64,000 bases of DNA from an uncultured Spirochaetales bacterium (GTDB taxonomy: Bacteria; UBP6; UBA1177). The stretch lies in the NCBI GenBank assembly GCA_964630905.1, contig CAZVWR010000002.1, forward strand, positions 23,531 through 87,530, written 5' to 3'. Shown here one piece after another: positions 6,181 through 63,200 of the stretch. The position numbers and the translations under genes are program-made. The notes beneath the pieces were generated by a model. The model did not search any database and was not told where the DNA came from. It was given only the letters and a program-made list of their open reading frames with translations. Positions within the stretch are counted from its first letter, which is position 1. The number at the start of each line of letters is the position of its first letter.

Positions 6181-6193
6181 AGGTTACGAATGT

Positions 6194-7221: not shown

Positions 7222-7927
<706 letters not shown>

Positions 7928-19436: not shown

Positions 19437-19446
19437 CGGAAACCTC

Positions 19447-33356: not shown

Positions 33357-33384
33357 AAAGGTTGGGGATGAGAAAGAAAAACCT

Positions 33385-33412: not shown

Positions 33413-33424
33413 AACAATAAAAAC

Positions 33425-34633: not shown

Positions 34634-34643
34634 CTCTTAATAA

Positions 34644-40106: not shown

Positions 40107-40109
40107 TAT

Positions 40110-41731: not shown

Positions 41732-41739
41732 GAGGAACT

Positions 41740-45827: not shown

Positions 45828-45834
45828 TAGTACT

Positions 45835-46689
45835 TTGAAAACAGGACATAGATCTACACTTATAATTTTAATCATCGCAACCGTAGTTATCATTATAATA
45901 GGGTTTGGATATCCTTTTTTTACAAACGAAACCATGAACATGTCAAGTCTTTCAAGTTGGATTTCAGCTATAATATCCAGTACTGCTTTCATATGGCTTA
46001 TATTCGGTTATTTTTTGCAGATGAAATCTTTAAATATACAAAGTATAGAAGTCGAACGGATGGCAAAGTTTGCAGCTTTGCAACAGATTCAAAATGCATT
46101 TGGCTTATTAAATGAAAAGGTAAAAAATTCAGGATATAAAGACGTTCATACTTTATCTGTGGAATTTCCGATGACTATGGCATTCACCATTAAAAATGTT
46201 GTTGAAAATAAAACCGATGAAAAACTGAAAATGGAGTGGATGTCTAAATGGACAAATTTTAAAAGTCTGTGTGATGAATTTATTGGCACTTTCGCAATGA
46301 TGTTAAAGCTTTATGATGAAGCACCTGAAAAAGAGATGGTTCAAAAAAAGAAACTGACTACCATAGAGAGTTCAATGAAAACCCTGAACATTGATGCAAA
46401 AACAATAAAGGATTTTGAGTCCATCGTGGACTATAAAAATGCATGGTATATTAAGACGAATTTCAAAAGAGCCCAAGAAATTCCAGTATTAGCTTTTTAT
46501 TCAAAGGCGGCTGGGATGTTGGCCGAGAGTATGATTCGTTTTGAACCAGGCATTGATATAGTCGAACTTGAGATACTTGAGGACAGTGAAAAAACCATTC
46601 CTGGTTGTGTAAAGAGCGAATATTTAGAAAAATTAAGAAAAAAGGTTGGCGATAGGGAAAAAGAAAGAGAGTCCAAAAAGAAGGTCTAA
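45835..46689 (+). CDS. Hypothetical membrane protein (2 N-terminal TM helices + ~220-aa helical cytoplasmic domain)
   Basis: LIILIIATVVIIIIGF and ISSTAFIWLIFGYFL hydrophobic helices; TTG start 8 nt after hsdR. Confidence 0.45.
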   Translation: MKTGHRSTLIILIIATVVIIIIGFGYPFFTNETMNMSSLSSWISAIISSTAFIWLIFGYFLQMKSLNIQSIEVERMAKFAALQQIQNAFGLLNEKVKNSGYKDVHTLSVEFPMTMAFTIKNVVENKTDEKLKMEWMSKWTNFKSLCDEFIGTFAMMLKLYDEAPEKEMVQKKKLTTIESSMKTLNIDAKTIKDFESIVDYKNAWYIKTNFKRAQEIPVLAFYSKAAGMLAESMIRFEPGIDIVELEILEDSEKTIPGCVKSEYLEKLRKKVGDREKERESKKKV

Positions 46690-46697
46690 GTTTAAAT

Positions 46698-47414
46698 ATG
46701 GTCAAGAAAAAGTTAAACCATAGTGTTTTATTCAGTCAGTCAGGTATTAATTATTCAACGACGGTTGAAGCTGCATTAGCAAAAACCATAATTCATGCGC
46801 TCGAACAGTACAAAATAAAATGGTCTTTGGGAAACAAGGTGTTATATGCAATGTGTAAAAATCACCCTGGACATAAAACTGAAGAGGAAATTCTGGCAAA
46901 AATATGGCTTATCGGAAGATCTTACGCTGCTGCCCTTGAGAGAAGAAAGAACAAAGAAAAAGAGTCAAGTAACGACGATTTTTACAATAATGCGGCAGAT
47001 CAGATCCAACAATCTGAAATAGATAAATGGATTGAGGAGAGTCGAAACAACAATGACCCTCAGGTTCACATTAAAACACACAAAAAGGTAACAACTCTTT
47101 TTGAAACGATAACTGGGCTCGAAAAACGGTCTCTTGCATCAAAATACCTTCACTTCCACCTGCCGAAAAAGTTTTTCATATATGATTCCAGGGCTGCTGG
47201 GGCAATGCCGGCTCTTTTACGGGAACTCGGCATTAAAAAGGTCACTGTCACCCATAAGGGCGAGGAATACGATGAAAAATATGCAGCGTTTTACGAGAAA
47301 TGTTTTGTCGCCCAGAAAGCAATAAAAGAAAAGTTCAACATAAATTGCAGTTGCAGAGATCTTGATACTGTGTTGATACATTTTGATAAGATCAAGAAAA
47401 CATTAAATATTTAA
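46698..47414 (+). CDS. Hypothetical protein (238 aa)
   Basis: ORF 9 nt after the preceding gene; no motif recognised. Confidence 0.4.
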   Translation: MVKKKLNHSVLFSQSGINYSTTVEAALAKTIIHALEQYKIKWSLGNKVLYAMCKNHPGHKTEEEILAKIWLIGRSYAAALERRKNKEKESSNDDFYNNAADQIQQSEIDKWIEESRNNNDPQVHIKTHKKVTTLFETITGLEKRSLASKYLHFHLPKKFFIYDSRAAGAMPALLRELGIKKVTVTHKGEEYDEKYAAFYEKCFVAQKAIKEKFNINCSCRDLDTVLIHFDKIKKTLNI

Positions 47415-47425
47415 GGGTGGTAATT

Positions 47426-48355
47426 ATGAGTAATAAAATAAAAAATGTTAAAAAGGTTCTTTTCATAAAACTTGGTGAGAAAGGTAAGTTTGAGGAGGAC
47501 TGTATTGAGAAAAGCAACACACTGAAACTTGATTACACAGAAATAGATCATAATGCTTGCACTAACGGTAACTGGGATAAGGTTAGAGAACATTACTTAA
47601 TTAAAGGTAATAAGCCGCAAGTAGCGACAGGTCATGTAAACCAAATAAAGCGTTTTTATGAAGAAGATAAGAAAACTCTCTGGATAACCTTTTATTCAAA
47701 CAAGCTATGGTGGTGTTTTTCAACTCCGAAGATCACAAAACTTCATGACAGCACCAAAACCCGTCCAGTAATCGGTAAGTGGTCTGACAAAGACATAAAT
47801 GGGAAAAAACTTTCTTTCGATAAGCTAAGCGGGAAGTTGCTGAAAACCCAAGGGTTCAGAGGTACTATTTGTGAGGTTCCGGAAAAAGAATATGTTCTGG
47901 CTAAAATTAATAGTGAAAAAAACCAAGATGTTTTGGATGTTGAAAAAGCTGTTTCAGTCCTGCAATCAAAGTTGACCAAGTTAATTCAAACTCTTCATTG
48001 GAAAGATTTTGAAACCCTTGTTGATCTTATATTCAGACAAGCAGGATGGCAAAGAGTTAGTGAGGTAGGAAAAACACAGAAAACATTAGATCTTGATCTT
48101 TTTGCGCCGGTAACTGGTGAAAGAGCACTGGTGCAGATAAAAGCACAGTCAAAATTTTCTGAGTTTGAAGAGTATAAGAAGGACTTTGAAAACATGAGCA
48201 GTTTCAACAAATTCTTTTATGTTGTACACACTTCTGACGAAAAACTTAAAAGTTATAAAAATGTCGGGAATATAAATATATGGCTCATCGAAAAAGTGGC
48301 AGAGCTGACAATTTCTGCCGGGTTAGTAGACTGGGTTATAAAGAAAACTTCCTGA
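47426..48355 (+). CDS. Protein with C-terminal Mrr-cat type PD-(D/E)xK restriction-endonuclease domain
   Basis: WKDFETLVDLIFRQAGWQRV ... TLDLDLF ... ALVQIKAQS (D...QxK core) as in Mrr N-terminal catalytic domains; unknown ~180-aa N-domain. Confidence 0.5.
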   Translation: MSNKIKNVKKVLFIKLGEKGKFEEDCIEKSNTLKLDYTEIDHNACTNGNWDKVREHYLIKGNKPQVATGHVNQIKRFYEEDKKTLWITFYSNKLWWCFSTPKITKLHDSTKTRPVIGKWSDKDINGKKLSFDKLSGKLLKTQGFRGTICEVPEKEYVLAKINSEKNQDVLDVEKAVSVLQSKLTKLIQTLHWKDFETLVDLIFRQAGWQRVSEVGKTQKTLDLDLFAPVTGERALVQIKAQSKFSEFEEYKKDFENMSSFNKFFYVVHTSDEKLKSYKNVGNINIWLIEKVAELTISAGLVDWVIKKTS

Positions 48356-48505
48356 CCCCCGCCCTTTTCTTATGAATTCACCATAGCAAATTCCGCCATT
48401 TATTTTTGCTCCATTCCCTAATTAAGCTATAATCCTCCGATGTTTGCGCCGATTTGCACTCTTGCTTGCGGGCGCTTTATAAAAACTGCTAAAAGGAGGA
48501 ATCCA

Positions 48506-48979
48506 ATGAAATTTCATTCAAAGATCTTAGGTGCGTTAATTCAGAAACAGAGGTTTGAGCACAAACGCTTGACAAGGAAGGGACTCGCAAAAATGCTCGG
48601 CTACAGCAATCTAGGTCGCGGGATCTGGCAGATTGAGCAGATCGAGAACGGGATAATCGAAGAACCGCTTGTTTCAAGGATCTGCGAGCTTCTTGATATT
48701 TCAGAGCTTGACCGGAAACGGTGTGAACTTGAGGAGAAGAAACAACTCCTTGAATATAGGATGGCTCTGCCACCGTTCAAACCGCACATCTCCGTCCGGC
48801 TTGGAAGCTGTTTCGGAAAGAACTATGCAATTCCTGAAGAGATCCTGGGAGTTGACGGACACATCTCATACGCGATAGGATTTGCAAAAACCATGAAACA
48901 GGCAGTGCATCTATGGATAACCCGTGACTTGAGCTATGTTGTTGAACCGGATGGGAAATGCAAGGTTGAGGGGCATTAG
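48506..48979 (+). CDS. HTH (XRE-like) DNA-binding protein
   Basis: RLTRKGLAKMLGYSNLGRGIWQIEQIENG helix-turn-helix; strong SD aaaggagga before the ATG at 48506. Confidence 0.55.
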   Translation: MKFHSKILGALIQKQRFEHKRLTRKGLAKMLGYSNLGRGIWQIEQIENGIIEEPLVSRICELLDISELDRKRCELEEKKQLLEYRMALPPFKPHISVRLGSCFGKNYAIPEEILGVDGHISYAIGFAKTMKQAVHLWITRDLSYVVEPDGKCKVEGH

Positions 48980-49078
48980 CAAATTCCACCCCTCCCGATT
49001 TTCATCAATTCTTGTTGGGTATACCCCACATAAGACACAAAAAGCCCAATGATTTCAAGAAAGCGTTCCGCCAGATCT

Positions 49079-49186
49079 GGTTGTCTATTTCCCACAACAG
49101 CCAGGCCGTCAACCTCGGAAATGTTGTCTATATCCTACAAGAATAGTTCCTCTGCAGCATAATTGTTGTCTATATCCTACAAGAAT
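49079..49186 (+). repeat. Three 22-23 bp direct repeats (gttgtctat[a/t]tcc[t/c]acaa...) with 16-20 bp spacers, bracketed by an 11-bp direct repeat cctcccgattt (48991-49001 and 49207-49217)
   Basis: Read directly; iteron-like. Confidence 0.7.
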
Positions 49187-49318
49187 CCGGTTTTTGAGGG
49201 CAGTCGCCTCCCGATTTCCTTAAAACTTCAATTTATACCAATATACTTTAAGTACTATTTAAGAGGAATGATTTTAAAGATTTACAGAAAAGAAACAAGC
49301 CGTTTGAGACTTTTGTTT

Positions 49319-49903
49319 TTAACTTTTAAGCCACAATTCTACCTCAGAAAGCGTTTCCATGGTTCCGTCCTTGCCCGCTGCTGTTACAAGAGAACCGGTA
49401 CTTAAAGAATATACCGAGTACCCTCGGTTTTCTTTTAGTAAATAGAACCCTGCTTTTTTTAAGCGATCGTCCATTATTGCTTCCTCTTCGTCTAGGTCAA
49501 TCTGAAATGCTCTATATTCCTCTTCAAGAATATCTTTCTGTTGTTCTACATCAGACAGTGTTAAAGTTGCAGTTTTTGAAGAAGATTCCCAACCATATAA
49601 AGGACTGTCGTCGCTGTCGCAGATATAGTATAGCCCTTTTTTCTTGATCAAATCATAACCCATTGATTGCAAATTCCGTCGCAGCAATCTTTCTGTTTCT
49701 TCTATATCGTTTTCAATACTTTCGACTTCTTTTTCAAGATCGTCAAGGCTGAACATTGCACACTTTGATGTTGGATCCCATCCATATTCCGGAACCCCGC
49801 GATCATTCATAATAAAGAAATTACTTTTGATTTTTGAAACAGAGAATCCTCCTCCCGCAATTCTTTCATTGAGAGCACTAATTTTACTCATGATATCCTC
49901 CAA
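49319..49903 (-). CDS. Hypothetical protein with internal duplication (two ~80-aa homologous halves)
   Basis: GWDPTSKCAMFSLDDLEKEV... vs GWESSSKTATLTLSDVEQQK... Confidence 0.4.
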   Translation of the reverse strand: MEDIMSKISALNERIAGGGFSVSKIKSNFFIMNDRGVPEYGWDPTSKCAMFSLDDLEKEVESIENDIEETERLLRRNLQSMGYDLIKKKGLYYICDSDDSPLYGWESSSKTATLTLSDVEQQKDILEEEYRAFQIDLDEEEAIMDDRLKKAGFYLLKENRGYSVYSLSTGSLVTAAGKDGTMETLSEVELWLKS

Positions 49904-50180
49904 AAAAATAAATCTACAAAAATTCCATCAACACAGTCCGTTTTTCTTGATTGTTTTTCAAAAAACATTTTACCTCCAATACAAAAATTAATGAACAACA
50001 TACCAACACCATTGTAGGTATATTTAAAAATCAGAGAGCATACTATAAAAAAGCTCTGCATCAGATATGATGATTTTTTTCATCATACAGTTTTGCCGTA
50101 CATCGAGATATCGTGATAAGTCGTATGAAGTCTTGTGATGCCCTGCCGTGCCTTTTTTCCATTCTATCGGGCTGAATCAA

Positions 50181-50276
50181 AAAATGACTCAATAAGAATC
50201 GAAAAATCCTCAAAGAGAAAGCTGCATAAATCCTCAAGGGCGAAGCAGCGTTAATCCTCAATAGGAAAAACTGTGT
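50181..50276 (+). repeat. Four iteron-like units at exact 24-bp period (core AATCCTCAA.G.GAA) 3' of the recombinase gene
   Basis: aatcctcaa at 50205, 50229, 50253 plus a degenerate unit at 50181. Confidence 0.7.
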
Positions 50277-50370
50277 AAATATAACAAAACGCATCTGTTT
50301 TGTCAATAAGACGAAAAAAAAAACCAAAAAAAAGGAGCCCATTACAGACTCCCTTTTAATACAAATTTCG

Positions 50371-50916
50371 CTATAGCGAAAACTTCTCCAGCGACTCATC
50401 AATGGCATCCTGAGTTATGCCGATATACCTCAGTGTGACTGCGGGTGATGAGTGGTTGAAGATCTTCTGGAGCATGGCGATGTCCTTGCTCATGCGGTAG
50501 TAATGAAACCCGAAGGTCTTTCTCATTGTGTGTGTTCCTATCCCTTCAAGTCCTACTTCCCTGGCGGCACTGTTGAGGATCCTCCATGCCGAAACTCTGG
50601 TGAGCGGTCGCTTTCCCCCCTGCCTTGAGAGGAACAGAAACTCATCATCATCCCTGCCCCGGACATAGCAGTCGATCTCCCGCTGAAGGTTGTCATTGAT
50701 CTTGAACTTCTTCTCCTTGCCGGTCTTCTGTTCACGGATAACGATATGGCTCCGCTCCCGGACATCCTCCACCCTGAGCCGGAGCAGATCCCCGACCCTG
50801 ATGCCGATGTTTATCCCCGACACAAAAAGGAAATAGTTCCTGAAGGACTGCTCCCGCAGTATCTTCTTCATCTGCTCGATCTTTTCCTGATCCCTTATCG
50901 GATTTACACTGTTCAT
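50371..50916 (-). CDS. Small tyrosine recombinase (181 aa)
   Basis: Catalytic-domain motifs GTHTMRKTFG (H..R) and VTLRYIG (Y). Its size resembles FimB/FimE and other small inversion recombinases. Confidence 0.75.
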   Translation of the reverse strand: MNSVNPIRDQEKIEQMKKILREQSFRNYFLFVSGINIGIRVGDLLRLRVEDVRERSHIVIREQKTGKEKKFKINDNLQREIDCYVRGRDDDEFLFLSRQGGKRPLTRVSAWRILNSAAREVGLEGIGTHTMRKTFGFHYYRMSKDIAMLQKIFNHSSPAVTLRYIGITQDAIDESLEKFSL

Positions 50917-51021
50917 GGTAGCACCTCTCTTTTAAGTTATTATCTCTGATCTGAAACTTTTCTGACCTGATACTTATACCACAGAATGCCCGGTTTTTGC
51001 GTCAGAACGAAAATGCGCAAT

Positions 51022-51188
51022 CCCTTTTCCAGGCAGGGAAATAAGTTATGTTACACTCAGTGAAACACACTATGTTTTTATGTTACCCGATTTTGCTCAG
51101 TATGTTACACCCAGAAATGGTGTCTTTTAAAAGCTAATGAAATTAGGCAGTTACAAATTCATGTAACTTAATGTATATTGTGTTACAT
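51022..51188 (+). repeat. Copy 2 of the TGTTACA-rich element, with a ~55-bp internal duplication flanked by atgttacacYcag
   Basis: Aligns with 29408-29519; contains GTTACA-n6-TGTAAC-n14-GTTACA inverted repeats and four (a)tgttac(a) motifs. Confidence 0.85.
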
Positions 51189-51231
51189 ATAATAATAAAA
51201 TCCTTGCTTGTTTTCTTTGCTAATATTAATT

Positions 51232-52005
<774 letters not shown>

Positions 52006-52160
52006 TTTTACCTCTCTTTAAAGTTTGTATTTAAAAAAACTCGCACCCTTCTTTATTAGAATAAATATTACAAGATGTTAATCAAGTTTTTACGGCATAT
52101 ATGCCGTGGACAATTAATTTTCCTCACATATTGTTATTTCAACCTTTTTGTGGGAGTTTC

Positions 52161-52409
52161 ATGAAAGTCGAAAAGTTTCTGGCAGAGATTCTCCGAAGAG
52201 AGAGAAGAAAGAAAAAACTATCGCAGGAAAAAACTGCTGTTCTTGCTGGAATTGACCGTTCATATTATTCAAAAATTGAAAGGGGCGAAAATAAGCCGAC
52301 TCTTGTAATTCTTTTTAAAATCAGCAGCGTTTTCGGAATTAAACTCTCTGAAATGATTAAAGAATTAGAAGACAGAAATCCAAAAATTTACAAAAATCCT
52401 GATAAATAA
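52161..52409 (+). CDS. HTH XRE-family DNA-binding protein
   Basis: LSQEKTAVLAGIDRSYYSKIERGENKPTL. Confidence 0.6.
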   Translation: MKVEKFLAEILRRERRKKKLSQEKTAVLAGIDRSYYSKIERGENKPTLVILFKISSVFGIKLSEMIKELEDRNPKIYKNPDK

Positions 52410-52808
52410 TTTTAAAATATCGCAGTGTGTTCAGATAATAAAGAGATCCTGCTTAAAAGATCCCTTTGCAACCGGCTTTCTTCAGTGCCTCAAGTTGAAG
52501 ATTCAGTATCTGATCAAGAATGATTACCTGTGCACAACCTACTCACGATTTTCCTCCTTGAAGTTAATATGTATATTGAAAATTCTGATCTCTACAATTA
52601 CTTATAACAGAATCCCAGAAAATTTTTCGGGTCGGACTTATCTCATAAACGCCAGTTAAGCGATGTTGATTTTGAGACGGGATTTGAGACAGGTTTTTTT
52701 ATCTTCTGAAGGGTTTCATAAACCTTCGTTTTTGAGAATTAATTATTTTTCTTTATATCGACTTAGTATCTGTAAATTATATTTTAAATCCCAAAAACAA
52801 AGAGAATT

Positions 52809-52958
52809 TTAAAAATCCCATTTGAAAAGAAATATATCATTACCACCGGCACCGGTCTTACCGTCCAGAGATCCTTTGGTGTACCCGGTTACAAATATGT
52901 TACCGCTGCTGTCCACTGCAACAGAGGATGCAAAATCACCTTCGCTCGTTCTCTGTCA
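52809..52958 (-). pseudogene. Remnant of an SBBP-repeat (beta-propeller) protein gene
   Basis: Minus-strand frame QRTSEGDFASSVAVDSSGNIFVTGYTKGSLDGKTGAGGNDIFLFKWDF* preceded by an in-frame stop; no intact gene. Confidence 0.5.
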
Positions 52959-53244
52959 CTGGTTACCGTCACGCAGTGACATAGAGCCAGAGAGAAAACG
53001 GAGACTGCTCTACGGCAGACTCAGAGCAGTTAAGAGATTATTATGGCAGTTGATTAAATTTGATATGTCTTTGGAAAAAACCTATACTCCGAAAAGAACT
53101 TGCTTTGGAAAGAAGGGGTTATGAGAATGTCATATAATTGGGAAAACAATTAATATCGAGTACACATGGACATCAATATAAACTCAATGGAACAGTACTA
53201 ATATAAATTGACAGGGTGTTTTTGAAATAAACAAGGAGCAGTAA

Positions 53245-54132
53245 ATGACTGAAAAAACAAAAGTACGGAAGTATGTTATAATAATGATAACAATAGTAAT
53301 AATATTTATTATTGGATCTATACTTTTTGTGGCTACTATGAATTCTGACCTGTATGGCAGGTTGATCGAAACAAAAAAGATCCAATTCTTCAACTCTGGA
53401 AAAGAGCAGTCTGACATACTACCTGAAGTTACGCTCATTTTACATAAATATGTCCGAGAAGAAAATTCAATAGAAGCATCAATGATTCTTAGATATGATG
53501 AAAGAAAGATGTTTCAGGACCTTAAAACCGACACTTTGCAATTCGTTGTTAGGTATGATGAGGGTTCTGGTATCTTACCTTTTGGACTTAACAAGTTCTA
53601 TCATACCGACAAATTTAATGGTGAAAACTATGGCGCTGTTAATTCGGTTTTTGAAACTAACAGGTTTTTAATTCCAACTCTTCCCTCTATGTATGGTTTC
53701 CCCTTTGACGATATACAAATTATCCCAATAATCTTTTTGTATGTTAACGGAAGGAACAGTAAGCTAAATACTGTAATTCAGAAAAATATTCCTGGCAGGA
53801 CAATAGAATTCTCAGAGAATAACAAAAAAGTAATTTTTCTAACCAGACTTCCGGCAGAAAAGTATCTGGTAATGATTAGCTCCGTGGTTTTTTTATTATT
53901 GACTATATTACTTACTTATAGCCTTTTTACTACAAAAGAAGAACTGAAAACAGTTGAGGAACTTATTGCAGTAGCGGGATACATCTTGGCGACAGCAGGT
54001 TTTAAAGAGATTGTTGGCATCGATAGAAGCAATGGAACGAGTGCTTTAGAAATTCTTGTTATTTTAATTCCACTTTTATTAGTTTTTTCGGGATTAATAT
54101 ATTCATTTTATAAGGCCAAAAAAGCTGTATAG
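53245..54132 (+). CDS. Hypothetical membrane protein (N- and C-terminal TM segments)
   Basis: Hydrophobic segments IIMITIVIIFIIGSILFVA and LVMISSVVFLLLTILLTYSLF. Confidence 0.4.
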   Translation: MTEKTKVRKYVIIMITIVIIFIIGSILFVATMNSDLYGRLIETKKIQFFNSGKEQSDILPEVTLILHKYVREENSIEASMILRYDERKMFQDLKTDTLQFVVRYDEGSGILPFGLNKFYHTDKFNGENYGAVNSVFETNRFLIPTLPSMYGFPFDDIQIIPIIFLYVNGRNSKLNTVIQKNIPGRTIEFSENNKKVIFLTRLPAEKYLVMISSVVFLLLTILLTYSLFTTKEELKTVEELIAVAGYILATAGFKEIVGIDRSNGTSALEILVILIPLLLVFSGLIYSFYKAKKAV

Positions 54133-54497
54133 GATGAACAAATAATCAATAACACGAGTTCAACTTATTTGAATTTGCAAAGAAATCGAAAATCAGGACA
54201 CTTATAAAAAATTGCCTTGCTACAATGACAGGTGGTATGTATAAAATTACAAACGATTATCTATATATATGCCTACAGGAATGATGTTTTTAATGGTTTT
54301 TCAAACGCGCCTGATTGAAAATATTCACAGTTTAAGATACTGAGTGGTTTTGGTCGTCATCGTTTGTCGATGTCGGGGGATACTGATTTGGGATATATTT
54401 CGCAATTGCTCTTATAAATGATCCTGAACTCAATAAGGGCACACCTGCATTACCTAATTTTGTTAAGAAGATCGTGAAGAATCGGTAGTTAGTCGAA

Positions 54498-57400
54498 TTA
54501 ATTACCAAGATTTATCATAATATGAAACATTTCAGCATTTTCACCATGTAATGTTTTTGCTATCTTGAAGTTTCTCACATCATCAAATTCATTAGTGATA
54601 TCAATAAAACCTCGTTTCTTATCTATCAAAAAAGTGGAAGGATAGTCAATCCCAAGAACATGTGATTCATATTTATTCCAGTTTTTATCAAAATTTTCAG
54701 ACTTTTTAAGGTAATAAATTATAACATAATACCTGTTTAAATATTCAATATATTTTTCACACTTTAAAATATGCTTCTGATTATATTCTTCTGTTCCAAA
54801 AACAAGAGCTTCTATAAGTGCAAAATCTTTTCCTCTTGAACTTAATGCAAAATCAGCATTACCCGCATCCTTCCCACCGTCAGATTTTCCAGTTCTTGGT
54901 TGATCATTTATATTCCAACCCCAAATAGCAAACCTTGGCAACAAGACTGCTTGAATAAAATCATTATAATGGTTTTCCAATATTTTCTGAGTTGCAACTT
55001 TCTTTTTCAATAAAGTTTGAAGAGCTAATATCAACTCATTTAAAATAAAAACTTCCAGCTCTTTTTTATTATTAATACATTCGGGAGTTATTCTTGGAAT
55101 ATTCTTTGGTTCTTGATTAATAATGTCCTTAAAAGAGTCTTTTAATATCGGCAATCTTTCCAATTTTGAATTCTGAATTAAATCATTAACATTTTTAGAT
55201 ACATCTTTATCATGTTCCCTTATATAACACTCTGATTTTTTTATATAATTGGACGCGAACTCATACATTTCCCTTTTCTTATAAAACTCATAAATTACCG
55301 GTATCATATCTTCATCATACAAAAATCGTTTTGATAACCGATTTATTGTTTGGTCAAAACTTACAGAATCTTCAATTGAAACATAGTAAAAAACCTTGTT
55401 ACTATCTACTTCTTCTGAAAAACCTACAAGCTTTTTCTTTTCCTCTGTATCATTAAGATTTTTAATGAAATTGTCCCATTCAGCATTAGCTTTGGCAAAC
55501 ATTTCTTTTGAAAATTCTTTTTCATTTGCTTCCAATGTTTGAGCACAATATAAGTATAGAGAATATTTTACATCTTGAGGATTTTTCTTAGACAAAGATT
55601 TCAAAATTTTAACTGCTTCAGGATAGTTTTTATCTTTATACATTTTATAAATAGCTACATAAAATGTCTTAAGATCTTCATTGGAAAATTTGTTGGGACC
55701 TCCCTCCGTTTTTGGAATTTCAAGACCATAAAGAGTTTCCCAATCTTTTTCTTTAAAAGCCAAAAGTAATTTTACCTCAAACATGAAAGAGTTAAAACGC
55801 GCATCAACAGTTTTTCTTTTTATATGATGTTTCTGAACTTCTTCAATAAGTGACTTTGCAAAAGCATAATGCTGTTCTGAATTAACCGCCTCTACTAAAG
55901 CATGTTCAAGTTCTGTAATCCAGTGTGCCGAATTTATAAAATCGTCAATTTTTATTTCCTTTATTCTTTTTGAAATCACATCTTTTACTTCTTTAGAATC
56001 TGTGCTGTTAATTGCTTTTAGCATTCTTTCAAAATTGACACTTTTTAAAAAGAATTCTTTAAAAAATTCGATTTGATTCCCTTTGTTAAAATAATTCAAA
56101 GACTTATATAGCAATTTTATTAATGGGGTGTGGTAAATGTTCTTCTCACTTAAATGGAATTTTTCATTAAAAACATCAATTCTTTTATTAGATAGCTCAT
56201 CACGAGAATAATTAAATGAGTAATATTTTATTAGGCTTTCCAATTCATTTGTAGTCTTTGTAACGGGCAAACAATGTGATTCATAAGCATCACGGCTTTG
56301 ATTTATTGATGTGTGAGCAACTAATAAAGTTTTCAAATAAGTCTTAATCTTTTCATGCTGTTCTAAATTTTCTTCATCATATTCACTTTCGTCTGAATTA
56401 AAACTCAGAGAACTAATAAAATCAGAGTCTATTTTTTTGAGAAAATCATACTTTTGAAAATGTAAAAACAAACATCCCCAGTCAATTATCTCATATCCAA
56501 ACTCTCCTGTACCTCTTCTTCTGACCTTTTCTGTTTTTGTTAATCCTGAGGAACAATCTATTACAGATATTTCTTTTGCACAGTAGAACCTTATTATGTA
56601 GTCCTTCAACGATGCAACTAACTCTTTTAAGAATTTTTCTATTTCGTCTTTCTTTTCAGACTCTTCCAAACCAGAAATATAGCTGTCATAAAAATTCAAA
56701 AGCTTTATTGAAAAATCAACAACGCCTGAATCTAGGTTTAATAATCCTGTATGATTTGGACTTGGATTATCTAATTTATTGATAATATATTTAGAAAGAC
56801 TTTGGATAGAATCATTTACTAACCCATGGTTGAAGTTACTGCCAACTATTCTCTTATTTTCAATAAGATATAAAGCTTTTTGATATCTTTTTTTATAAAA
56901 ATCATGCCGATTATTATCAAACCTACCCGCCGATCTTCCATTAAAAGCTTTTTCTGCAGCATCAAGCAAAATTCTAGCGAACATATTTCCAATTTCTTTG
57001 TCTCTAGAATTAGAAATGCTTATCTTATCCAGTATAAACTCAAACATTTCAAGCCAAATTTGACTCTTTATTTCGTATTGTTCCGTCATATCGTTGTGAT
57101 TGACTTTTTTTAAGATATTGTGATTTATTACAACTTCATCGACCATTCTTAACACAACTGGAACTGTATCTGGATCATATAATAAATACGGCAGGATCTC
57201 AGGATATTTTTCAGGAACTGTCTTAAATAAAGCCCAAATTAGAAAAGGCCTCGAAATGTCTTTAAAAATGGAAATAATTTCATCATATTTACTAAAATTA
57301 TTTGATTCATTCAAAATTATCAATCTTAAAAAAGTGTGATATATATATCGAGGCCCCTCATACAAACAACAGCAATCTCTGTTTGGCCATTCAAATATTT

Positions 57401-58319
57401 CCAGATTTTTAAGCACAGCATCAATATTCTCATCTTTTAATCTAAACATTTTATCATTTGAATAACTAACTTTTATTTCATATCTTTCAAAACAATCAAA
57501 AACATTCTTTGTTGATTCATATTCTGAATTTATAAGATCTTCTTCATCAATGAGATAATTATGTGCCGACTTGCAAATTGCCAAACATTCTGACTCCGGC
57601 AAATAATTTCTCATATCGCCCACATATAATCCAGAAATTCTAATATATTCAAAAAATTGATTAAACTTTTCATCGTATGATTTTTTGTTTTTAATCAAAT
57701 GCCACAAAATTGAACCAATTTCATTTTTGAATAAATTTAATAAGTGGTGATGCCGTTTATTCCAAACATAGTCTTTTTCATCTTTTTCCATCCAAATAAG
57801 TTTTTCTTTTTTGAAATATTCCACACTCAAACCTGAGTTTTCTTCAATCAATATTTTCTCTATTACCTCTTTTGAAACGAAAACTCTATCTTCTTGAAAA
57901 TACTGTTCATTATATAAATTTAAACATTTTAATAGATTTAATTTTTTTTCAGAGATGTCATTGTTTTCTTTATCTTTTAAAACTTTCTTAACATAAAGCA
58001 ATACTTGACGAGGAATTAATGCTTGACCAGTTAAAATTCTGATCCAACCTTCTTGCTTAAAATCTTCTAAAATTAATGCAGTGCAATTCTCTTCATTATA
58101 CTTTTCAATTATTTCTAAGAATTTATTTTTACTTTTATCTGAAGATTTTAATTCTAAAATAATTCTTGCAAGAATGTATGAAAGCCTGTGTTTAAGGTCA
58201 TCTTTCCTTATAATCCAATCATTATGGCGCCCATTTCTGCTTCTGTCTAAATTATAAAACTTTAATCTTTGGCTTAATGATTCCAGTTTTATTGAATCTT
58301 GTGGCTTTATAAATGGCAT
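54498..58319 (-). CDS. Very large (1273 aa) AT-rich orphan protein, no recognised catalytic motif
   Basis: Continuous ORF. Base composition is markedly more AT-rich than flanking genes. C-terminal segment TGKSDGGKDAGNADFALSSRGKDFALIEALVF is weakly PD-(D/E)xK / Mrr-like. Confidence 0.45.
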   Translation of the reverse strand: MPFIKPQDSIKLESLSQRLKFYNLDRSRNGRHNDWIIRKDDLKHRLSYILARIILELKSSDKSKNKFLEIIEKYNEENCTALILEDFKQEGWIRILTGQALIPRQVLLYVKKVLKDKENNDISEKKLNLLKCLNLYNEQYFQEDRVFVSKEVIEKILIEENSGLSVEYFKKEKLIWMEKDEKDYVWNKRHHHLLNLFKNEIGSILWHLIKNKKSYDEKFNQFFEYIRISGLYVGDMRNYLPESECLAICKSAHNYLIDEEDLINSEYESTKNVFDCFERYEIKVSYSNDKMFRLKDENIDAVLKNLEIFEWPNRDCCCLYEGPRYIYHTFLRLIILNESNNFSKYDEIISIFKDISRPFLIWALFKTVPEKYPEILPYLLYDPDTVPVVLRMVDEVVINHNILKKVNHNDMTEQYEIKSQIWLEMFEFILDKISISNSRDKEIGNMFARILLDAAEKAFNGRSAGRFDNNRHDFYKKRYQKALYLIENKRIVGSNFNHGLVNDSIQSLSKYIINKLDNPSPNHTGLLNLDSGVVDFSIKLLNFYDSYISGLEESEKKDEIEKFLKELVASLKDYIIRFYCAKEISVIDCSSGLTKTEKVRRRGTGEFGYEIIDWGCLFLHFQKYDFLKKIDSDFISSLSFNSDESEYDEENLEQHEKIKTYLKTLLVAHTSINQSRDAYESHCLPVTKTTNELESLIKYYSFNYSRDELSNKRIDVFNEKFHLSEKNIYHTPLIKLLYKSLNYFNKGNQIEFFKEFFLKSVNFERMLKAINSTDSKEVKDVISKRIKEIKIDDFINSAHWITELEHALVEAVNSEQHYAFAKSLIEEVQKHHIKRKTVDARFNSFMFEVKLLLAFKEKDWETLYGLEIPKTEGGPNKFSNEDLKTFYVAIYKMYKDKNYPEAVKILKSLSKKNPQDVKYSLYLYCAQTLEANEKEFSKEMFAKANAEWDNFIKNLNDTEEKKKLVGFSEEVDSNKVFYYVSIEDSVSFDQTINRLSKRFLYDEDMIPVIYEFYKKREMYEFASNYIKKSECYIREHDKDVSKNVNDLIQNSKLERLPILKDSFKDIINQEPKNIPRITPECINNKKELEVFILNELILALQTLLKKKVATQKILENHYNDFIQAVLLPRFAIWGWNINDQPRTGKSDGGKDAGNADFALSSRGKDFALIEALVFGTEEYNQKHILKCEKYIEYLNRYYVIIYYLKKSENFDKNWNKYESHVLGIDYPSTFLIDKKRGFIDITNEFDDVRNFKIAKTLHGENAEMFHIMINLGN

Positions 58320-58485
58320 CTCAACTCCTTTTAATCTTAAAAAACGCCAATGATTACGAAAGATAACCTTATTGTTTCAATTGTCAATTTAAGCCACCAA
58401 AACCCAGAAAAGAACACATCCCAAAATCCCTCCATTTTTCTGTTATAAGTGTTTGTGAATACAGACATTATTTCAGGAGGAAACT

Positions 58486-59094
58486 ATGAAAGAGATCGCG
58501 AGTACTATTGCAGAGAGGGGTGCTGGTTACTGTTCCAATCCGGATCTGCTGGAATTCATTTTCGGGAAGGTCCGTCCGGATCACCGTCATGCTATCGAGA
58601 GGATAATAAATTCAGGTGAGGATCCTGAGAACACGAAGCTTCCGGGAAAGATGAAGCTGAAGCTGAAGGCGTTTTATGAGCTGGGTGCCCGGATGTTCGA
58701 GAAGGGTAAGATCCGGCTGGGGAAGAGTTCCGATGTGGCGGATCTGTGCAGGGATATGAGGACTCTGAAGCAGGAGCATTTTGTAACGCTCACGGTGAAC
58801 GGCAACAACTGCCTGATCTCAAAGCGGGTCATCTTCATCGGGACTCTCAACAAGTCAATCGTCCATCCGAGAGAGGTGTTCGCTGCGGCCATTTCAGATC
58901 ATGCGGCGGGGATCGTCCTGGTGCATAACCATCCAAGCGGCAACCCCGAGCCGAGTACTGAGGACATCATCATGACCCGTAAGCTTGCAGAAGCGGGAAA
59001 TATCCTGGGGATAGAGGTCATTGATCATGTGATCATAGCGGATTCGAATCATTACAGTTTTCAAGGTAACGGACTTATTAAGAGGGAGGTTTAA
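58486..59094 (+). CDS. radC: RadC-family JAB/MPN domain protein
   Basis: HNHPSGNPEPSTEDI JAMM-like motif; 202 aa. Confidence 0.8.
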   Translation: MKEIASTIAERGAGYCSNPDLLEFIFGKVRPDHRHAIERIINSGEDPENTKLPGKMKLKLKAFYELGARMFEKGKIRLGKSSDVADLCRDMRTLKQEHFVTLTVNGNNCLISKRVIFIGTLNKSIVHPREVFAAAISDHAAGIVLVHNHPSGNPEPSTEDIIMTRKLAEAGNILGIEVIDHVIIADSNHYSFQGNGLIKREV

Positions 59095-59097
59095 ACC

Positions 59098-60324
59098 ATG
59101 CAGATCAGTACACATGAATTTAAAAGGGCGGTTGAGAACTGCCTGCTCATCACACCGAAGAAACCGAAGCTCAGCATACTCGGGCTTCTCAAACTTGATG
59201 CCGGTAATAACAGCATCACACTTTCAGCAACGAACCTTGAAGAGCACTACTCTGTCACAGTGTCGGTCAGGAACGGCGAAGAGTTTTCGGCACTTATCCA
59301 GGGTGACCAGCTTTTGAAGGTGTTAAAGAACATTAAGAATGAAACGGTCGAGCTTGACGGTGAAAGGAATGAAACATCTGACATAGCTCATATCAGGATC
59401 GTTTCAGGTATGACATTCCGGCTCAATGCGGAAAACAGTGTCGATGATTTTCCGGGTATCCCCCGTGACGACTTCAGGAAAAGTGCGGCAGTTGAGATCT
59501 CTGATCAGAAAGTGCTTTTTGAGATCATGAAGAAAGTCCTTTTCAGCACAACTCAGCAGAATGTCAACAAGGCATATTCCGGAGTGCTGTTCTCTCAGAA
59601 GGATGATCACCTTGAAGTTGTCACGACCGACATCCACCGGCTCACAGTGGTAACAACGACTTCGGCACAGACAAAAGCCGATTTTGTGATACCGGCAGAA
59701 TCGGTAAAAAATCTGACCAGAATGTTTAAAGATGCGGCAGTTACAGAAGTTCTTCTTGCAACTGAACCGCAGGAAGAGAGTGGATCAGAAAAACCGGTTG
59801 ATGCGACAATGATCATGTTCATGACCAGCCATGAATGCTATGTCTCACGGCTTCTCAAGAACGAATTTCCCAATTACAACAGGGTTGTAGACATTGGCAT
59901 CGTTGAAAAAAGCTGGTTTGAAATTGAGAGAAAACCGCTCCTTGAAAAGCTCAAAACACTCATAGACTTCCATGCCGGAATGAAAATTGTGAGCGCAGTC
60001 TTTGACTTTGTTAACGAAACCCTCCACATCTCAACATGCGGAGGCGCTGAATCGTCCGTGCAGACAGAGATCCCCATCCGGCCCGTCAACGAAAACCCCG
60101 ACGCAGTAAAAATCACCGGACTCAATCTGAAGTACCTCCAGGAAGCAGTCAGCAGCATGGGAAGTGTCGCCGTCAACCTCATCGAAGGAGCAGAACTCAA
60201 ACCCTTCTACCTCACCGACAGACAACCCGGTTACCGGCTCTATCACCTCATCATGCCCATGAGAATTGAAAATATCAGAAGCCGGAAAGTTGCCACAGAG
60301 CAGAAAGCGACAAAAGCCGCGTGA
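59098..60324 (+). CDS. DNA polymerase III beta (sliding clamp)-like protein, divergent paralogue
   Basis: Three-domain clamp-like length (408 aa) and a DnaN-type C-terminal tail PFYLTDRQPGYRLYHLIMPMRI (compare ...YVVMPMRL); start 4 nt after radC stop. Confidence 0.55.
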   Translation: MQISTHEFKRAVENCLLITPKKPKLSILGLLKLDAGNNSITLSATNLEEHYSVTVSVRNGEEFSALIQGDQLLKVLKNIKNETVELDGERNETSDIAHIRIVSGMTFRLNAENSVDDFPGIPRDDFRKSAAVEISDQKVLFEIMKKVLFSTTQQNVNKAYSGVLFSQKDDHLEVVTTDIHRLTVVTTTSAQTKADFVIPAESVKNLTRMFKDAAVTEVLLATEPQEESGSEKPVDATMIMFMTSHECYVSRLLKNEFPNYNRVVDIGIVEKSWFEIERKPLLEKLKTLIDFHAGMKIVSAVFDFVNETLHISTCGGAESSVQTEIPIRPVNENPDAVKITGLNLKYLQEAVSSMGSVAVNLIEGAELKPFYLTDRQPGYRLYHLIMPMRIENIRSRKVATEQKATKAA

Positions 60325-60345
60325 AAAGGTTGGGGAAGAGAAAGA

Positions 60346-60372
60346 GAACCCTCCCGCCGGAAGGCGGGAGGG
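60346..60372 (-). terminator. Same CCTCCCGCC-GGAA-GGCGGGAGG hairpin as at 33385, T-tract on the minus strand, 3' of the 60386-60685 gene
   Basis: Perfect stem, read directly. Confidence 0.6.
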
Positions 60373-60385
60373 GGTGGTGAATAAA

Positions 60386-60685
60386 TTATTTCTTACCGGA
60401 AGTTAAGCCAGCCATTTTTTCGAGATCTTTTAGACGGTATCTTTTAATGCTTTTCCCGATGACACAAGGTTTAAGGAATCCTTTCACTGTAGGTGTATAA
60501 ACAGTCTGCCGGGTAACATTCAGCCATCTGGCCGCTTCCTGCTGTGTAAGAAGCACCTGCTGTACCGGAGGCTTATTTCCCTTTAAGACTGCTTTTACCT
60601 GTTTTTTCTGAAGCTCACTCACATTCGGATCGCTCTGCAATGCAGTTTCAACTATTCTGACGGTGTCCCGTTTTATCTTCTTCAT
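60386..60685 (-). CDS. Excisionase/MerR-like HTH DNA-binding protein
   Basis: LLTQQEAARWLNVTRQTVYTPTVKG...GKSIKRYRLKDLE (HTH_17 type); start at internal Met with SD gggagg. Confidence 0.55.
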   Translation of the reverse strand: MKKIKRDTVRIVETALQSDPNVSELQKKQVKAVLKGNKPPVQQVLLTQQEAARWLNVTRQTVYTPTVKGFLKPCVIGKSIKRYRLKDLEKMAGLTSGKK

Positions 60686-60803
60686 AGTTAACCTCCCTGA
60701 AATAATGCCAAAAGCAGTCTGTAAAGATTTTAGCAGATTGAAAATAAAAGGCAAAAAGGGGCGGCACGGAGTGAATGGTGAACGATGAAGAGTGACTTGT
60801 CCG

Positions 60804-61331
60804 TTACTTAAATACACTGTCCGGGGGTTTGGGAAGGCCGAGAACGGCATATAATTCTTCGATTGCATGAAGATGAGGAATGTATGTGTAAAGTACCCTG
60901 TTCATTTTCATATTTATCTGTTCAAGATCAAAGCTCCCTTCTTCAATAGCGGCATCCATATAAATTCCGATCGAAAATATAAGATCGTTCTGACAGCCGG
61001 TCAGCCGCCTGTTCGGAAGACTTTTTGTAAATACAACTTCTGATGCTTCAAGCATTACCTCGTTAATTTTATCATCAGGAATTTCCGCCAGTTTCAGCAT
61101 TCTTTCCAGGCGGTCAAGAAATGCCTGTCTGAGAGTTGTTTTTGAAATATCTGTCAGTAAAAATGAGAAGAGCGTCTTTTCGTTTGAAAAGATGTAGTAT
61201 TTTTTCCTTCTGAAAATAAAAACATTGGCAGTCCAGTCACCCAGAAACCCGGGATGGTTTATGTCAGGAAGGGGAGACAGATGAAGTTTTAAACTGTCCG
61301 CCATTTTCTTTGTACAGCCAATGAAGATCAC
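60804..61331 (-). CDS. Hypothetical protein
   Basis: ORF only. Confidence 0.35.
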   Translation of the reverse strand: MIFIGCTKKMADSLKLHLSPLPDINHPGFLGDWTANVFIFRRKKYYIFSNEKTLFSFLLTDISKTTLRQAFLDRLERMLKLAEIPDDKINEVMLEASEVVFTKSLPNRRLTGCQNDLIFSIGIYMDAAIEEGSFDLEQINMKMNRVLYTYIPHLHAIEELYAVLGLPKPPDSVFK

Positions 61332-61451
61332 TTAGCACACTCCTTTAGAAAAAATCATCGGATTATTAAGGAAAATATCGGAAAAGGCAAGAGAGGTTAC
61401 GGAGTGACTTGGTGAACGGTGACCTTTCTGCTCACCCACGCAAAGCGTGTA

Positions 61452-61925
61452 TCATCCGTCACTGTTCACTGTATAAAAGCGACACACACGGACAAAATTT
61501 TTAGCAAGATCGTAGCTTAAGAAAACATTTCCTGTGTTGAAAGCAACACCTAATTTGTTAGCGGAATAATTATTGTGGGATGTAGAAGACCAGAAATATC
61601 CTGAATTATTATTACTATGCACCCAGACACCTTTTTCCATATAAAAACCATTTTCGCCGGGACCTTTATTTTTTTCTCCAGATTCTTTTTCTTCAGATAC
61701 ACCGGTAACAAGGGTCTTCAGTTCTTCAATTGTAGGCAACCGCCAATCTGAAAAGTCTCCCAGACGGAGATCTTCTGCATATTTTTCCACTTCATTACGC
61801 CATTCGAACTCTTTCTCACTGCAGGATCTCTGCCACATAAGCCCTGTTTTCAAATCAACAACAATTTCTTCATTATTTACACTGAAAATCTCATGCCTTC
61901 CGGCAACTGTTTCAATTTTTTTCAT
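61452..61925 (-). CDS. DUF1566 (Lcl C-terminal domain) protein
   Basis: TGLMWQRS ... DWRLPTIEELKTLV. Confidence 0.6.
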   Translation of the reverse strand: MKKIETVAGRHEIFSVNNEEIVVDLKTGLMWQRSCSEKEFEWRNEVEKYAEDLRLGDFSDWRLPTIEELKTLVTGVSEEKESGEKNKGPGENGFYMEKGVWVHSNNNSGYFWSSTSHNNYSANKLGVAFNTGNVFLSYDLAKNFVRVCRFYTVNSDG

Positions 61926-62512: not shown

Positions 62513-62857
62513 ATGAAAGACCTTCCCCAACTGGAAGATTTCAAAGACCTTGAAAGATCTATGTATGTCGACATAGAAAATTTCCTTCTCCTCTTTCCCG
62601 ATGATCCGTTTATTTATTCAGGTGATATTTCAGAAACATTTTCCCTCAGGGCTTTACTTGAGAGTAGCAACATTACAAGAGTTTCCCGGCTCCTCCTGGT
62701 TGTCAGAGGAGGGTTTGATATAATAATGAACCTCTCTCATGATATTAAGGAGATCCTTGATGATGGTCTTGAAAATAATCTTTTAATGACCGGAACGGGC
62801 GGGAAAAGAAGGATTGTAGTGGTCGCTCAGCCTGCCGGAGGCAAGGATGAAGTATAA
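62513..62857 (+). CDS. Hypothetical protein
   Basis: First of three overlapping small ORFs. Confidence 0.35.
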   Translation: MKDLPQLEDFKDLERSMYVDIENFLLLFPDDPFIYSGDISETFSLRALLESSNITRVSRLLLVVRGGFDIIMNLSHDIKEILDDGLENNLLMTGTGGKRRIVVVAQPAGGKDEV

Positions 62858-63200
62858 GTTGTACCTTGATGATATCCGCCACCCGAGGCATACTCCTGAA
62901 TACAGGGATTTCGACCGTGATTTTTTTAAGGACATAACGATAGCCAGAAATTATGATGAGGTTGTTGAGATATTGACTGAGAAAGGACTTCCGGCAGTTT
63001 TGATGTTGGACTACGATCTGGGGCAGGATATCCATACCGGTCAGGATGTCGTTAATTACTTCATATCGCTTGTTAAAGAAAACCCTTCAGCACTTGACCC
63101 CAAATTTATTTATTTTGTCCACTCCAACAGCAAAGCTGGTGCGGCTCTGATGCGTGAAACACTTGATAATTTCCTTAAAGAGATAGGCAGGATGAAATGA
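62847..63200 (+). CDS. Small receiver-fold-like protein (MKYKLYLDDIRHP ... LMLDYDLGQD ... FVHSNSKAG)
   Basis: Acidic-pocket, Asp, Ser and Lys positions are consistent with a minimal REC-like fold; family not identified. Confidence 0.35.
   Translation: MKYKLYLDDIRHPRHTPEYRDFDRDFFKDITIARNYDEVVEILTEKGLPAVLMLDYDLGQDIHTGQDVVNYFISLVKENPSALDPKFIYFVHSNSKAGAALMRETLDNFLKEIGRMK

Follow-up and report, generated by a model that had tools for sequence, protein, structure and literature searches.

A predicted RadC-sliding clamp operon and its decayed second copy

We analyzed a 64,000-nucleotide stretch of DNA (the window; positions 23,531 to 87,530 of contig CAZVWR010000002.1, GenBank assembly GCA_964630905.1) from an uncultured Spirochaetales bacterium (GTDB lineage Bacteria; UBP6; UBA1177), which carries a compact module encoding a RadC-family protein followed by a paralogue of the DnaN (beta) sliding clamp. 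The coordinates of this module and of the surrounding features are collected in Table 1. The clamp ATG lies 3 nt past the RadC stop codon, with a GGAGG motif within the 3′ end of radC, and the two genes are predicted to be translationally coupled. Together with its leader and a closing hairpin, the full copy appears to be an intact, self-promoted and self-terminated two-gene operon; its GC content is approximately 45%, compared to 27 to 40% in the surroundings.

The ends of the module are conserved among relatives, whose loci and contigs are designated below by L numbers. The leader motif was seen in 10 of 11 aligned leaders, that of L004 lying inside a longer open reading frame (ORF) call, and an extended −10 element (TGTTATAAG) with a strong ribosome binding site is present in the leaders of all lineages. 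The promoter motif GTTATAAGT, found at 58440-58455 in the window, is kept even upstream of a 28%-identical clamp in L043. In several lineages (leaders of L004, L006, L010, L028, and L043), it is paired with an inverted ACTTATAAC located 17 to 22 nt upstream; the clade of the window has only the right half of this inverted pair, which is probably an operator for nearby XRE-type helix-turn-helix (HTH) genes. The leader promoter was assigned by reading the sequence, as a generic sigma-70 scan did not call it. An equivalent hairpin lies 3′ of the last cassette gene in every lineage. In the window, this hairpin is without a T-run on the plus strand and has a T-rich tail on the minus strand, and a search of Rfam found no RNA family within positions 50000-61500.

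The initial annotation described the module as occurring twice with a common leader and hairpin, the second copy having collapsed by two deletions, and the alignment of the two loci bears out this description. The decayed copy matches three blocks of the full copy (58420-58552, 58779-58966, and 60248-60381), with 436 of 455 aligned positions identical (95.8%), and is missing the sequences corresponding to 58553-58778 (226 bp) and 58967-60247 (1,281 bp). The larger deletion, which has a TCATCATG octamer on either side, preserves the reading frame, while the smaller one shifts it, such that the RadC ATG at 33026 reads 24 codons and then meets a stop. The 122-amino acid ORF listed for this copy is a chimera read from an upstream GTG start, and the copy as a whole appears to be a pseudogene remnant. 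The ends of both copies agree within 1 to 2 bp, with (C)CCCAAAATCC on the left and a right end just past GGGAGGGGGTGG, and their flanks are unrelated; identical module ends were also found in metagenome contigs with yet other flanks. Given two blocks at 95 to 97% identity with common ends, a chance resemblance is excluded. The leader of the remnant is identical at 134 of 134 positions to the L031/L036/L040 type and to L024, and that of the full copy is of the L032 type. Since the two leaders match the types of different relatives, the copies did not arise by a recent internal duplication.

The RadC protein

The identity of the first gene product is unambiguous. It matches PF04002 with 147.3 bits (cutoff, 22.1; E value of 2.4e-43) and TIGR00608 with 143.9 bits (cutoff, 133.85), and it aligns with the solved RadC homologue of PDB entry 2qlc (E value of 1.9e-24). 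The metal site E..HxH..S..D is intact, being carried by the HPREVF and HNHPSGNPEPSTED motifs, and is invariant in nine homologues. The protein misses the full-length chromosomal equivalog NF000642 (156.2 bits against a cutoff of 180), and the match covers only residues 58 to 197, indicating a divergent N-terminal region. Inspection by eye of RadC and of the clamp tail revealed no obvious clamp-binding motif.

The 408-amino acid protein as an element-specific beta clamp

The second gene product was first noted as a divergent homologue of the beta clamp, for which a structure prediction was proposed as a check. Its N-terminal and central domains score above the Pfam cutoffs for the beta clamp, and its family profile aligns with solved clamps over positions 3 to 390. 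An AlphaFold2 model built from 59 sequences reached a pLDDT of 89.7 and a pTM of 0.86. When this model was compared to the PDB with Foldseek, the best 50 matches were all beta clamps, the best-ranked being bacterial with TM scores of 0.83 to 0.89; viral clamps gave TM scores of 0.82 to 0.87, and PHROG 947 matched with an E value of 1.4e-41. The Pfam domains, the end-to-end profile alignment, the model, and the Foldseek matches thus agree in predicting a real three-domain beta clamp, as initially suspected.

This clamp is not the replicative DnaN of the host, since it falls below the cutoff of the dnaN equivalog TIGR00663 (131.6 against 137.65), no dnaA or recF gene lies near it in the window, where its neighbors are radC and island genes, and chromosomal clamps are only distantly related to it. 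Its nearest non-island relatives are chromosomal clamps of approximately 380 residues with 24 to 32% identity, labeled “bacterium,” UBP6, or “uncultured Spirochaetales,” and the dnaA-dnaN-recF order was confirmed in all three of the chromosomal clamp loci checked. Residues were compared using an E. coli beta sequence, the length of which (366 residues) was checked. Relative to this sequence, island clamps carry Y for L155, I for G174, and K/A for Y153/Y154, and the same residues are found in chromosomal clamps of the host lineage. Positions T172, H175, R176, L177, P242, N320, Y323, M362, P363, and R365, corresponding to the partner-binding cleft and the MPxR motif, are all kept. The simplest reading is that the island clamp is a captured dnaN of the host lineage that has strongly diverged and retained its partner-binding cleft. 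A viral origin was considered and rejected, as no relative was found in IMG/VR and the phage and plasmid matches in GenBank reached only 20 to 28% identity.

Two features set the island clamps apart. MPMRI is followed by a basic C-terminal tail of approximately 18 residues that invariably terminates in KAA, with NAA, AAAA, or LAA in distant members. In addition, the canonical salt-bridge residues of the dimer interface, in E. coli K74, R103, R105, E300, E301, and E304, are replaced by Q, M, F, S/T, S, and T, respectively, in an alignment whose register is ambiguous by one residue. The MAFFT alignment also points to a possible charge-for-hydrophobic swap (R108/D290) at this interface; a gapless alternative shifts the register.

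Conservation of the gene pair and a Gam-like third gene

The close clamp family comprises nine 90%-identity clusters in a word-indexed search, and a full hidden Markov model scan for the clamp retrieved 19 cluster representatives at an E value of <1e-30 among 1.84 billion. The initial annotation had also proposed a search for RadC-clamp pairs in other genomes. In every relative of the RadC-linked clade with readable context, radC lies directly upstream of the clamp gene, at clamp identities of 38 to 98% (contexts read: L001, L002/3, L004-8, L010, L024-27, L028, L029, L030, L032, L034-40, and L041), so the pair is conserved as neighbors well beyond the window. Both genes are under purifying selection, with dN/dS ratios of 0.08 to 0.21 (0.08 to 0.15 for radC and 0.09 to 0.21 for the clamp gene; relatives with pS of 6 to 60%).

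Outside the clade of the window, whose members share 86 to 100% identity, a third gene of 180 to 182 codons always follows the clamp gene (L001, L002/3, L004-8, L010, L028, L029, and L041; clamp identity of 38 to 65%). Its product matches phrog_491, “Mu Gam-like end protection,” with E values of 2e-8 to 7e-5. No Gam-like sequence was detected by tblastn in the whole window. In L029, a near-identical hairpin follows the Gam-like gene, and in the window it follows the clamp gene, implying that excision removed the third gene but left the terminator in place. The ancestral cassette would then have comprised RadC, the clamp, and the Mu Gam-like protein, with the module of the window being a Gam-less derivative. 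A distant clamp, P0067 (28% identity; L043/44), has kept the Gam-like partner (hhalign probability of 98.6%) without RadC, and there the pair adjoins DUF932 and a PriCT_2/DUF5906 primase-helicase.

The cassettes are also mosaic. In L010, RadC and the Gam-like protein are 91 and 86% identical to those of L028, while the clamp is 92% identical to that of L004 and only 43% identical to that of L028; the clamp gene thus appears to move from one cassette to another as a unit. When loci were compared across lineages, no block other than the cassette was common to all of them; a few flanking genes recur in subsets, and defense genes differ.

A separate observation concerns the C termini. The clamp tails ending in KAA, NAA, AAAA, or LAA (60271-60321 in the window; P0063, P0067, and P0075) resemble ssrA-type degrons, as do the C termini of the Gam-like proteins, which end in LKxAS or RQAA (L001, L002, L005, L010, L028, L029, and L043). 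This likeness suggests that the clamp and the Gam-like protein may both be kept short-lived.

A minimal tyrosine recombinase and its presumed site

A gene for a tyrosine recombinase reduced to the catalytic domain lies on the leader side of the operon. The translation contains the catalytic motifs GIRVGDL, HTMRKTF, and LRYIG (R, HxxR, Y), and 33 collection blocks contain the exact 181-residue protein. The distance from the recombinase gene to radC is approximately 345 bp in 7 of the 10 places shown (L032, L034, L035, L038, L039, and L040 by gene call and L031 at the DNA level). The recombinase gene is divergent from the operon in most related contigs, and an 83%-identical homologue lies upstream of the RadC-clamp-Gam trio in L029, which belongs to a 55%-identity lineage. 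A region of (T)GTTACA repeats next to the gene is presumed to be the recombinase site. In twelve contigs from metagenomes or metagenome-assembled genomes (95 to 98% identical DNA), the operon leader is joined to this repeat region by a 7-bp spacer, which reads TTCGTCT in L024, L025, L031, and L033-L040 and CTCACCT in L032.

In the window, this junction is interrupted at both copies. A 7.2-kb low-GC insert separates the recombinase site from the leader of the full copy and is missing in L024, L025, and L031-L040; an identical 7,342-bp contig (L042, from run SRR10083294) breaks at both flanking repeats. A different insert of 3.4 kb occupies the same junction at the decayed copy, and its right end retains the CACCT of the L032-type spacer. 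Both inserts begin immediately past ..TGTGTTACA and stop directly ahead of CAC(C/A)T-CCCAAAATCC, i.e., at the same spacer point. Likewise, L029 carries a 3.5-kb insert (integrase, IS91-type transposase, and thioredoxin) between the recombinase site, whose repeats lie at 690-830 of that locus, and the trio. At the other end of the module, close relatives show at least five different sequences directly past the hairpin. Within the close clade, the recombinase, the site, and the operon are constant while both flanks vary, and the GTTACA-repeat site may be a minimal gene-capture site.

Four other arrangements were considered, of which the first is improbable and the other three were rejected. If a circular element had its attP at the junction, and if 32959-51188 were a single 18-kb island having the operon at its left end and the recombinase at its right end, the TTCGTCT spacer should be repeated at the supposed attL and attR, and it is not. 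One simple insertion event at this point accounts better for L029 and for both copies in the window than an integrated circle does. An integron was rejected because the recombinase scores 37 bits against 265 for TIGR02249, has only 181 residues and no N-terminal domain, and the insert ends show no attC-like repeats. An invertible promoter switch was rejected, as the site was nowhere found inverted in the window and its orientation was not reversed in any contig, and so was a circular 3-kb mini-element, since the left and right ends of L024 and L025 do not overlap. The integron platform is similar in one respect: there too, a tyrosine recombinase gene is divergent from its site, as here, where different segments sit at the same nucleotide in two copies. 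The recombinase limited to its catalytic domain, the lack of attC-like repeats, and the opposite orientation of the inserted genes all differ, so that the likeness is one of logic only.

As for the contents of the larger insert, it includes an 82-codon HTH_3 gene near 52160-52410, an ORF at 53245-54132 on the plus strand, and a 1,273-codon ORF at 54498-58319 on the minus strand. The latter has a GC content of 27 to 29%, matched nothing in Pfam or PADLOC and only one family, far below threshold, in NCBIfam, and could be an unrecognized defense or cargo gene.

Genomic neighborhood and other features of the window

The initial annotation suggested that the module could serve a mobile element or a defense system, a setting that fits what surrounds it here and elsewhere. 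Besides the adjacent recombinase gene, the window carries a type I restriction-modification (RM) system with DarT/Macro genes (DarTG) and a DprA-like gene, an Mrr protein, and a DUF6933 protein. Defense genes near related cassettes include TIR (L001), Schlafen/AlbA_2 (L002), SNF2 with a methylase (L004), and AbiH with TerB (L041), and HTH regulators adjoin many cassettes.

Table 1. Positions of the operon, its second copy, and surrounding features within the 64,000-nucleotide window
Feature	Position	Strand	Description
Homology block, full copy	58420-60381	+	One complete predicted transcription unit: promoter/leader, RadC, 408-amino acid clamp, GC hairpin
Promoter and leader	58420-58485	+	66 nt; CCCAAAATCC..TTTTCTGTTATAAGT, putative extended −10 TGnTATAAg, then AGGAGG 5 nt from ATG
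RadC-family JAB/MPN protein	58486-59094	+	202 amino acids; PF04002, TIGR00608, PDB 2qlc
Beta sliding-clamp paralogue, element-specific	59098-60324	+	408 amino acids; Pfam, PDB profiles, AlphaFold2 model, Foldseek
3′ hairpin closing the operon	60349-60372		10-bp GC stem, GGAA loop: CCCTCCCGCC-GGAA-GGCGGGAGGG
Decayed copy	32959-33413	+	Leader and RadC 5′ end, 32959-33091; RadC JAB core, 33092-33279; clamp tail and hairpin, 33280-33413
Tyrosine recombinase, catalytic domain only	50371-50916	−	181 amino acids; PF00589, 82.6 bits (cutoff, 27.1)
Recombinase-proximal repeat region	51023-51188		Five direct and one inverted (T)GTTACA repeats, ending ..TGTGTTACA(T)
Partial second copy of the repeat region	29408-29518		94 to 95% identical, 40-bp internal gap; no recombinase gene attached
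7.2-kb low-GC insert between recombinase site and leader	51189-58419		Lcl_C/collagen-repeat lipoprotein, HTH_3 gene, 295-amino acid ORF, 1,273-amino acid ORF
3.4-kb insert at the same junction, decayed copy	29519-32958		779-amino acid Kelch/collagen-repeat protein and 294-amino acid protein
Defense island	35838-48355	+	HsdM, 35838-37838; HsdS, 37835-39220; HsdR, 42765-45827
Genes interrupting the type I RM system	Within 35838-48355	+	PRTase-like, 39147-40106; DprA/SLOG-like, 40110-41096
DarTG-like genes	Within 35838-48355	+	DarT, 41093-41731 (E value of 5e-62); Macro-domain DarG-like, 41728-42795
Mrr_cat protein	47417-48355	+	3′ end of the defense island
DUF6933 protein adjoining the operon	60804-61331	−	PADLOC candidate PDC-S63, E value of 3e-7
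cREC_REC (cyclic-phosphate receiver) protein	62847-63200	+	1.5 kb beyond the DUF6933 gene

Several further features were recorded. The DUF6933 gene is followed by a cREC_REC gene, and a homologue (55%) is also present in L031, located on the recombinase side of the cassette. A 402-bp segment at 60389-60790 is missing from L032, which is otherwise 96 to 98% identical, and contains an HTH_17/excisionase-like frame, probably of 98 codons from an internal Met. Five copies of a 35-nt intergenic repeat (AAAACTG.AAAAGTGGAATTT.TTTAGGG.GTTG) lie 600 to 1,100 nt apart between small minus-strand genes at 3741-7178, and a 38-nt repeat is present at 5481 and 7141. An 18-nt tandem repeat of approximately 24 units lies at 18814-19245 inside the ORF at 16950-19463. 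Coding repeats with a 9-nt period were found at 7745-7859, 31640-31799, 35095-35245, and approximately 51640-51830 in predicted secreted proteins or lipoproteins, and two of the genes with such repeats lie directly beside the copies of the recombinase site.

Discussion

The gene identities, the clamp fold, the fixed gene order, the purifying selection, the association with a recombinase, and the decay of the second copy are the observations that any account of this cassette has to accommodate. The explanation that we favor, tentatively, is that the cassette is a backbone module of small integrative islands with variable cargo, in which a private clamp would be loaded onto island DNA intermediates and would engage host enzymes through its cleft, with RadC working on the same substrate and the Gam-like protein, where present, protecting the ends. 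A backbone function is suggested because the cassette is the constant part and the cargo the variable part of the island family, and a role in handling the island's own DNA because the partners are a DNA-end binder, RadC and, distantly, DUF932 and a primase-helicase. In this scheme, the host clamp loader would put the private clamp onto an intermediate of the island DNA that arises during excision, transfer, or replication and has ends, nicks, or gaps. The clamp would then recruit host partners of the polymerase or ligase type through its conserved hydrophobic cleft, RadC, supplied in fixed proportion by translational coupling, would process nucleic acid, and the Gam-like protein, in the complete cassette only, would cap free ends against host exonucleases.

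Several points weigh against this explanation. The window version does without the Gam-like protein, and end protection therefore cannot be essential. The Gam-like assignment itself is sub-threshold in Pfam (PF07352, 26.5 against 28.3 bits), and the protein gave no sequence match in the PDB. The clamp has no relative among IMG/VR viral contigs, and within 10 kb of any RadC-containing cassette, we found no gene for a relaxase, for type IV secretion, for phage structure, or for a replication initiator. Every step of the mechanism is inferred, from clamp loading to the choice of partners and substrate, as is any physical link among RadC, the clamp, and the Gam-like protein. Finally, the defense-rich neighborhoods fit a defense or anti-defense role equally well.

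Among the alternatives, the one that survives best, while still unlikely, is an anti-defense or takeover module, in which the private clamp would replace or outcompete the host clamp, as a decoy or as a means to escape inhibitors, and RadC and Gam would neutralize host nucleases. Mu Gam-type proteins are classical RecBCD blockers, and the third gene matches phrog_491. The clamp alleles are shuffled between cassettes, as in L010, a pattern typical of conflict genes, and the replaced salt-bridge residues could prevent mixed rings of island and host clamps. It is also known that phages exploit or target the clamp, as MuC of phage Mu does (PMC12867686). However, the cleft and the lineage residues are kept, an observation more suggestive of normal partner binding than of a dead decoy, the dimer-interface alignment is ambiguous by one residue, and no conjugative leading-region context surrounds the RadC-containing cassettes. 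Overall, allele shuffling and the altered interface mildly favor the anti-defense or decoy idea, while the backbone position and the Gam-like, DUF932, and primase partners fit handling of the island's own DNA better than hijacking or decoy.

It is improbable that the cassette is itself anti-phage defense cargo, with the Ku/Gam-like protein and the clamp sensing or threading onto the DNA ends of invaders and RadC acting as the effector. Its position in defense islands (type I RM, DarT/Macro, and Mrr in the window; TIR, Schlafen/AlbA_2, SNF2 with methylase, AbiH, and TerB elsewhere) and the match of the neighboring DUF6933 protein to PADLOC candidate PDC-S63 are what such cargo would lead one to expect. 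Yet the cassette is constant while the defense genes vary, and PADLOC-DB 2.0 has no match for the clamp or the Gam-like protein and only a marginal generic JAB match for RadC (E value of 0.0014). Moreover, the window clade dropped the putative end sensor, yet its remaining two genes are under purifying selection, and in L043 the clamp and Gam-like genes are accompanied by backbone genes of elements, namely, DUF932 and a primase-helicase.

Two further possibilities seem very improbable. The clamp might serve as a sliding platform for transcription or regulation of the island, coupling expression to nicks or replication, a role with precedents in T4 gp45 and in the host clamp with MuC of Mu (PMC12867686). 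The HTH regulators adjoining many cassettes and the deeply conserved GTTATAAGT, often with an operator-like inverted ACTTATAAC, would be consistent with it, but the cassette has no conserved Mor/MuC-like or sigma-like partner, and the partners that are conserved, RadC and the Gam-like protein, point to DNA rather than to RNA polymerase. The extra clamp could instead be a resistance allele against a clamp-targeting toxin or antibiotic. A second dnaN gene is a self-resistance determinant in, for instance, griselimycin producers; here, however, no biosynthetic cluster or toxin gene is conserved beside the cassette, and the conserved partners handle DNA. Least credible of all is that both copies are decaying remnants without present function: the 32959-33413 copy is clearly dead and the Gam-like gene has been lost in the window clade, but the full copy has intact ORFs, ribosome binding sites, promoter motif, and hairpin, and dN/dS ratios of 0.08 to 0.21.

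Each part of the cassette has counterparts in known systems. Three-domain clamps are carried by other mobile elements, as in the DnaN proteins of Caulobacter, Ralstonia, Nodularia, and Arthrobacter phages and the dnaN of Nostoc plasmid pCC7120beta. In pCC7120beta, the only such neighborhood inspected, the clamp gene lies with dnaX, holA, and an exonuclease gene, whereas the island clamp is accompanied by RadC and the Gam-like protein and by no polymerase or loader; it also differs from the phage and plasmid clamps in its conserved basic tail ending in AA and in having no IMG/VR relative. T4 gp45 is a trimeric PCNA-type clamp. As proposed for the island family, T4 with gp45 and Mu with MuC are mobile elements that rely on a sliding clamp beyond bulk chromosome replication; MuC carries clamp-binding motifs by which Mu employs the clamp of its host (PMC12867686), and we found no comparable activator here. 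Through its matches to phrog_491 and, weakly, PF07352, the third gene of the complete cassette recalls the Ku-type end protection by Gam of phage Mu, and it differs in being sub-threshold in Pfam, in lacking a structure match by sequence, and in being missing from the window.

RadC is predicted to process nucleic acids and, among polyvalent proteins, occurs only in those of conjugative elements (PMC5512222); it is also competence-associated (PMC12826799). It is among the most widespread proteins of bacteria and mobile elements whose function is still undefined (“RadC, a misleading name?,” cited in PMC12826799). Solo RadC proteins and the RadC domains of polyvalent proteins in conjugative elements and prophages resemble the one described here in being JAB domains with an intact metal site on a mobile element. 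The partners described for them are HhH, ArdC-N, and DinG-type helicases (PMC5512222) and DUF3085 (PMC12826799), with no clamp in either paper. Mobile-element clamps, mobile-element RadC, and Gam-type end binders are thus each well known, and our search of the literature for RadC together with a clamp, DnaN, or Gam turned up no account of a fixed RadC-clamp(-Gam) operon, in keeping with the initial impression that a dedicated clamp paralogue paired with RadC is unusual.

Since the cassette comes from uncultured organisms and is rare (19 representatives among 1.84 billion), its immediate impact is modest. It nevertheless offers a testable lead: DNA ends or primer-template junctions may be where RadC acts, either tethered by a clamp or in cooperation with one. 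A bolder combination of ideas, which we consider a long shot, is that an orthogonal clamp with a rewired dimer interface, not mixing with the host clamp, would act with a Ku/Gam-like ring on the DNA ends of the island or of invaders and would tether RadC as a clamp-guided processing enzyme, with the 181-residue recombinase and the GTTACA site serving as an integron-like capture point and the AA/AS C termini directing the clamp and the Gam-like protein to ssrA-type proteolysis. If true, this would provide the first defined substrate and partner for RadC. The two different inserts at the same nucleotide beside a minimal tyrosine recombinase hint at a simple gene-capture site. With its cleft kept, its interface changed, and a tail gained, the island clamp may be viewed as a natural experiment in carrying a second, possibly non-mixing, clamp in one cell.

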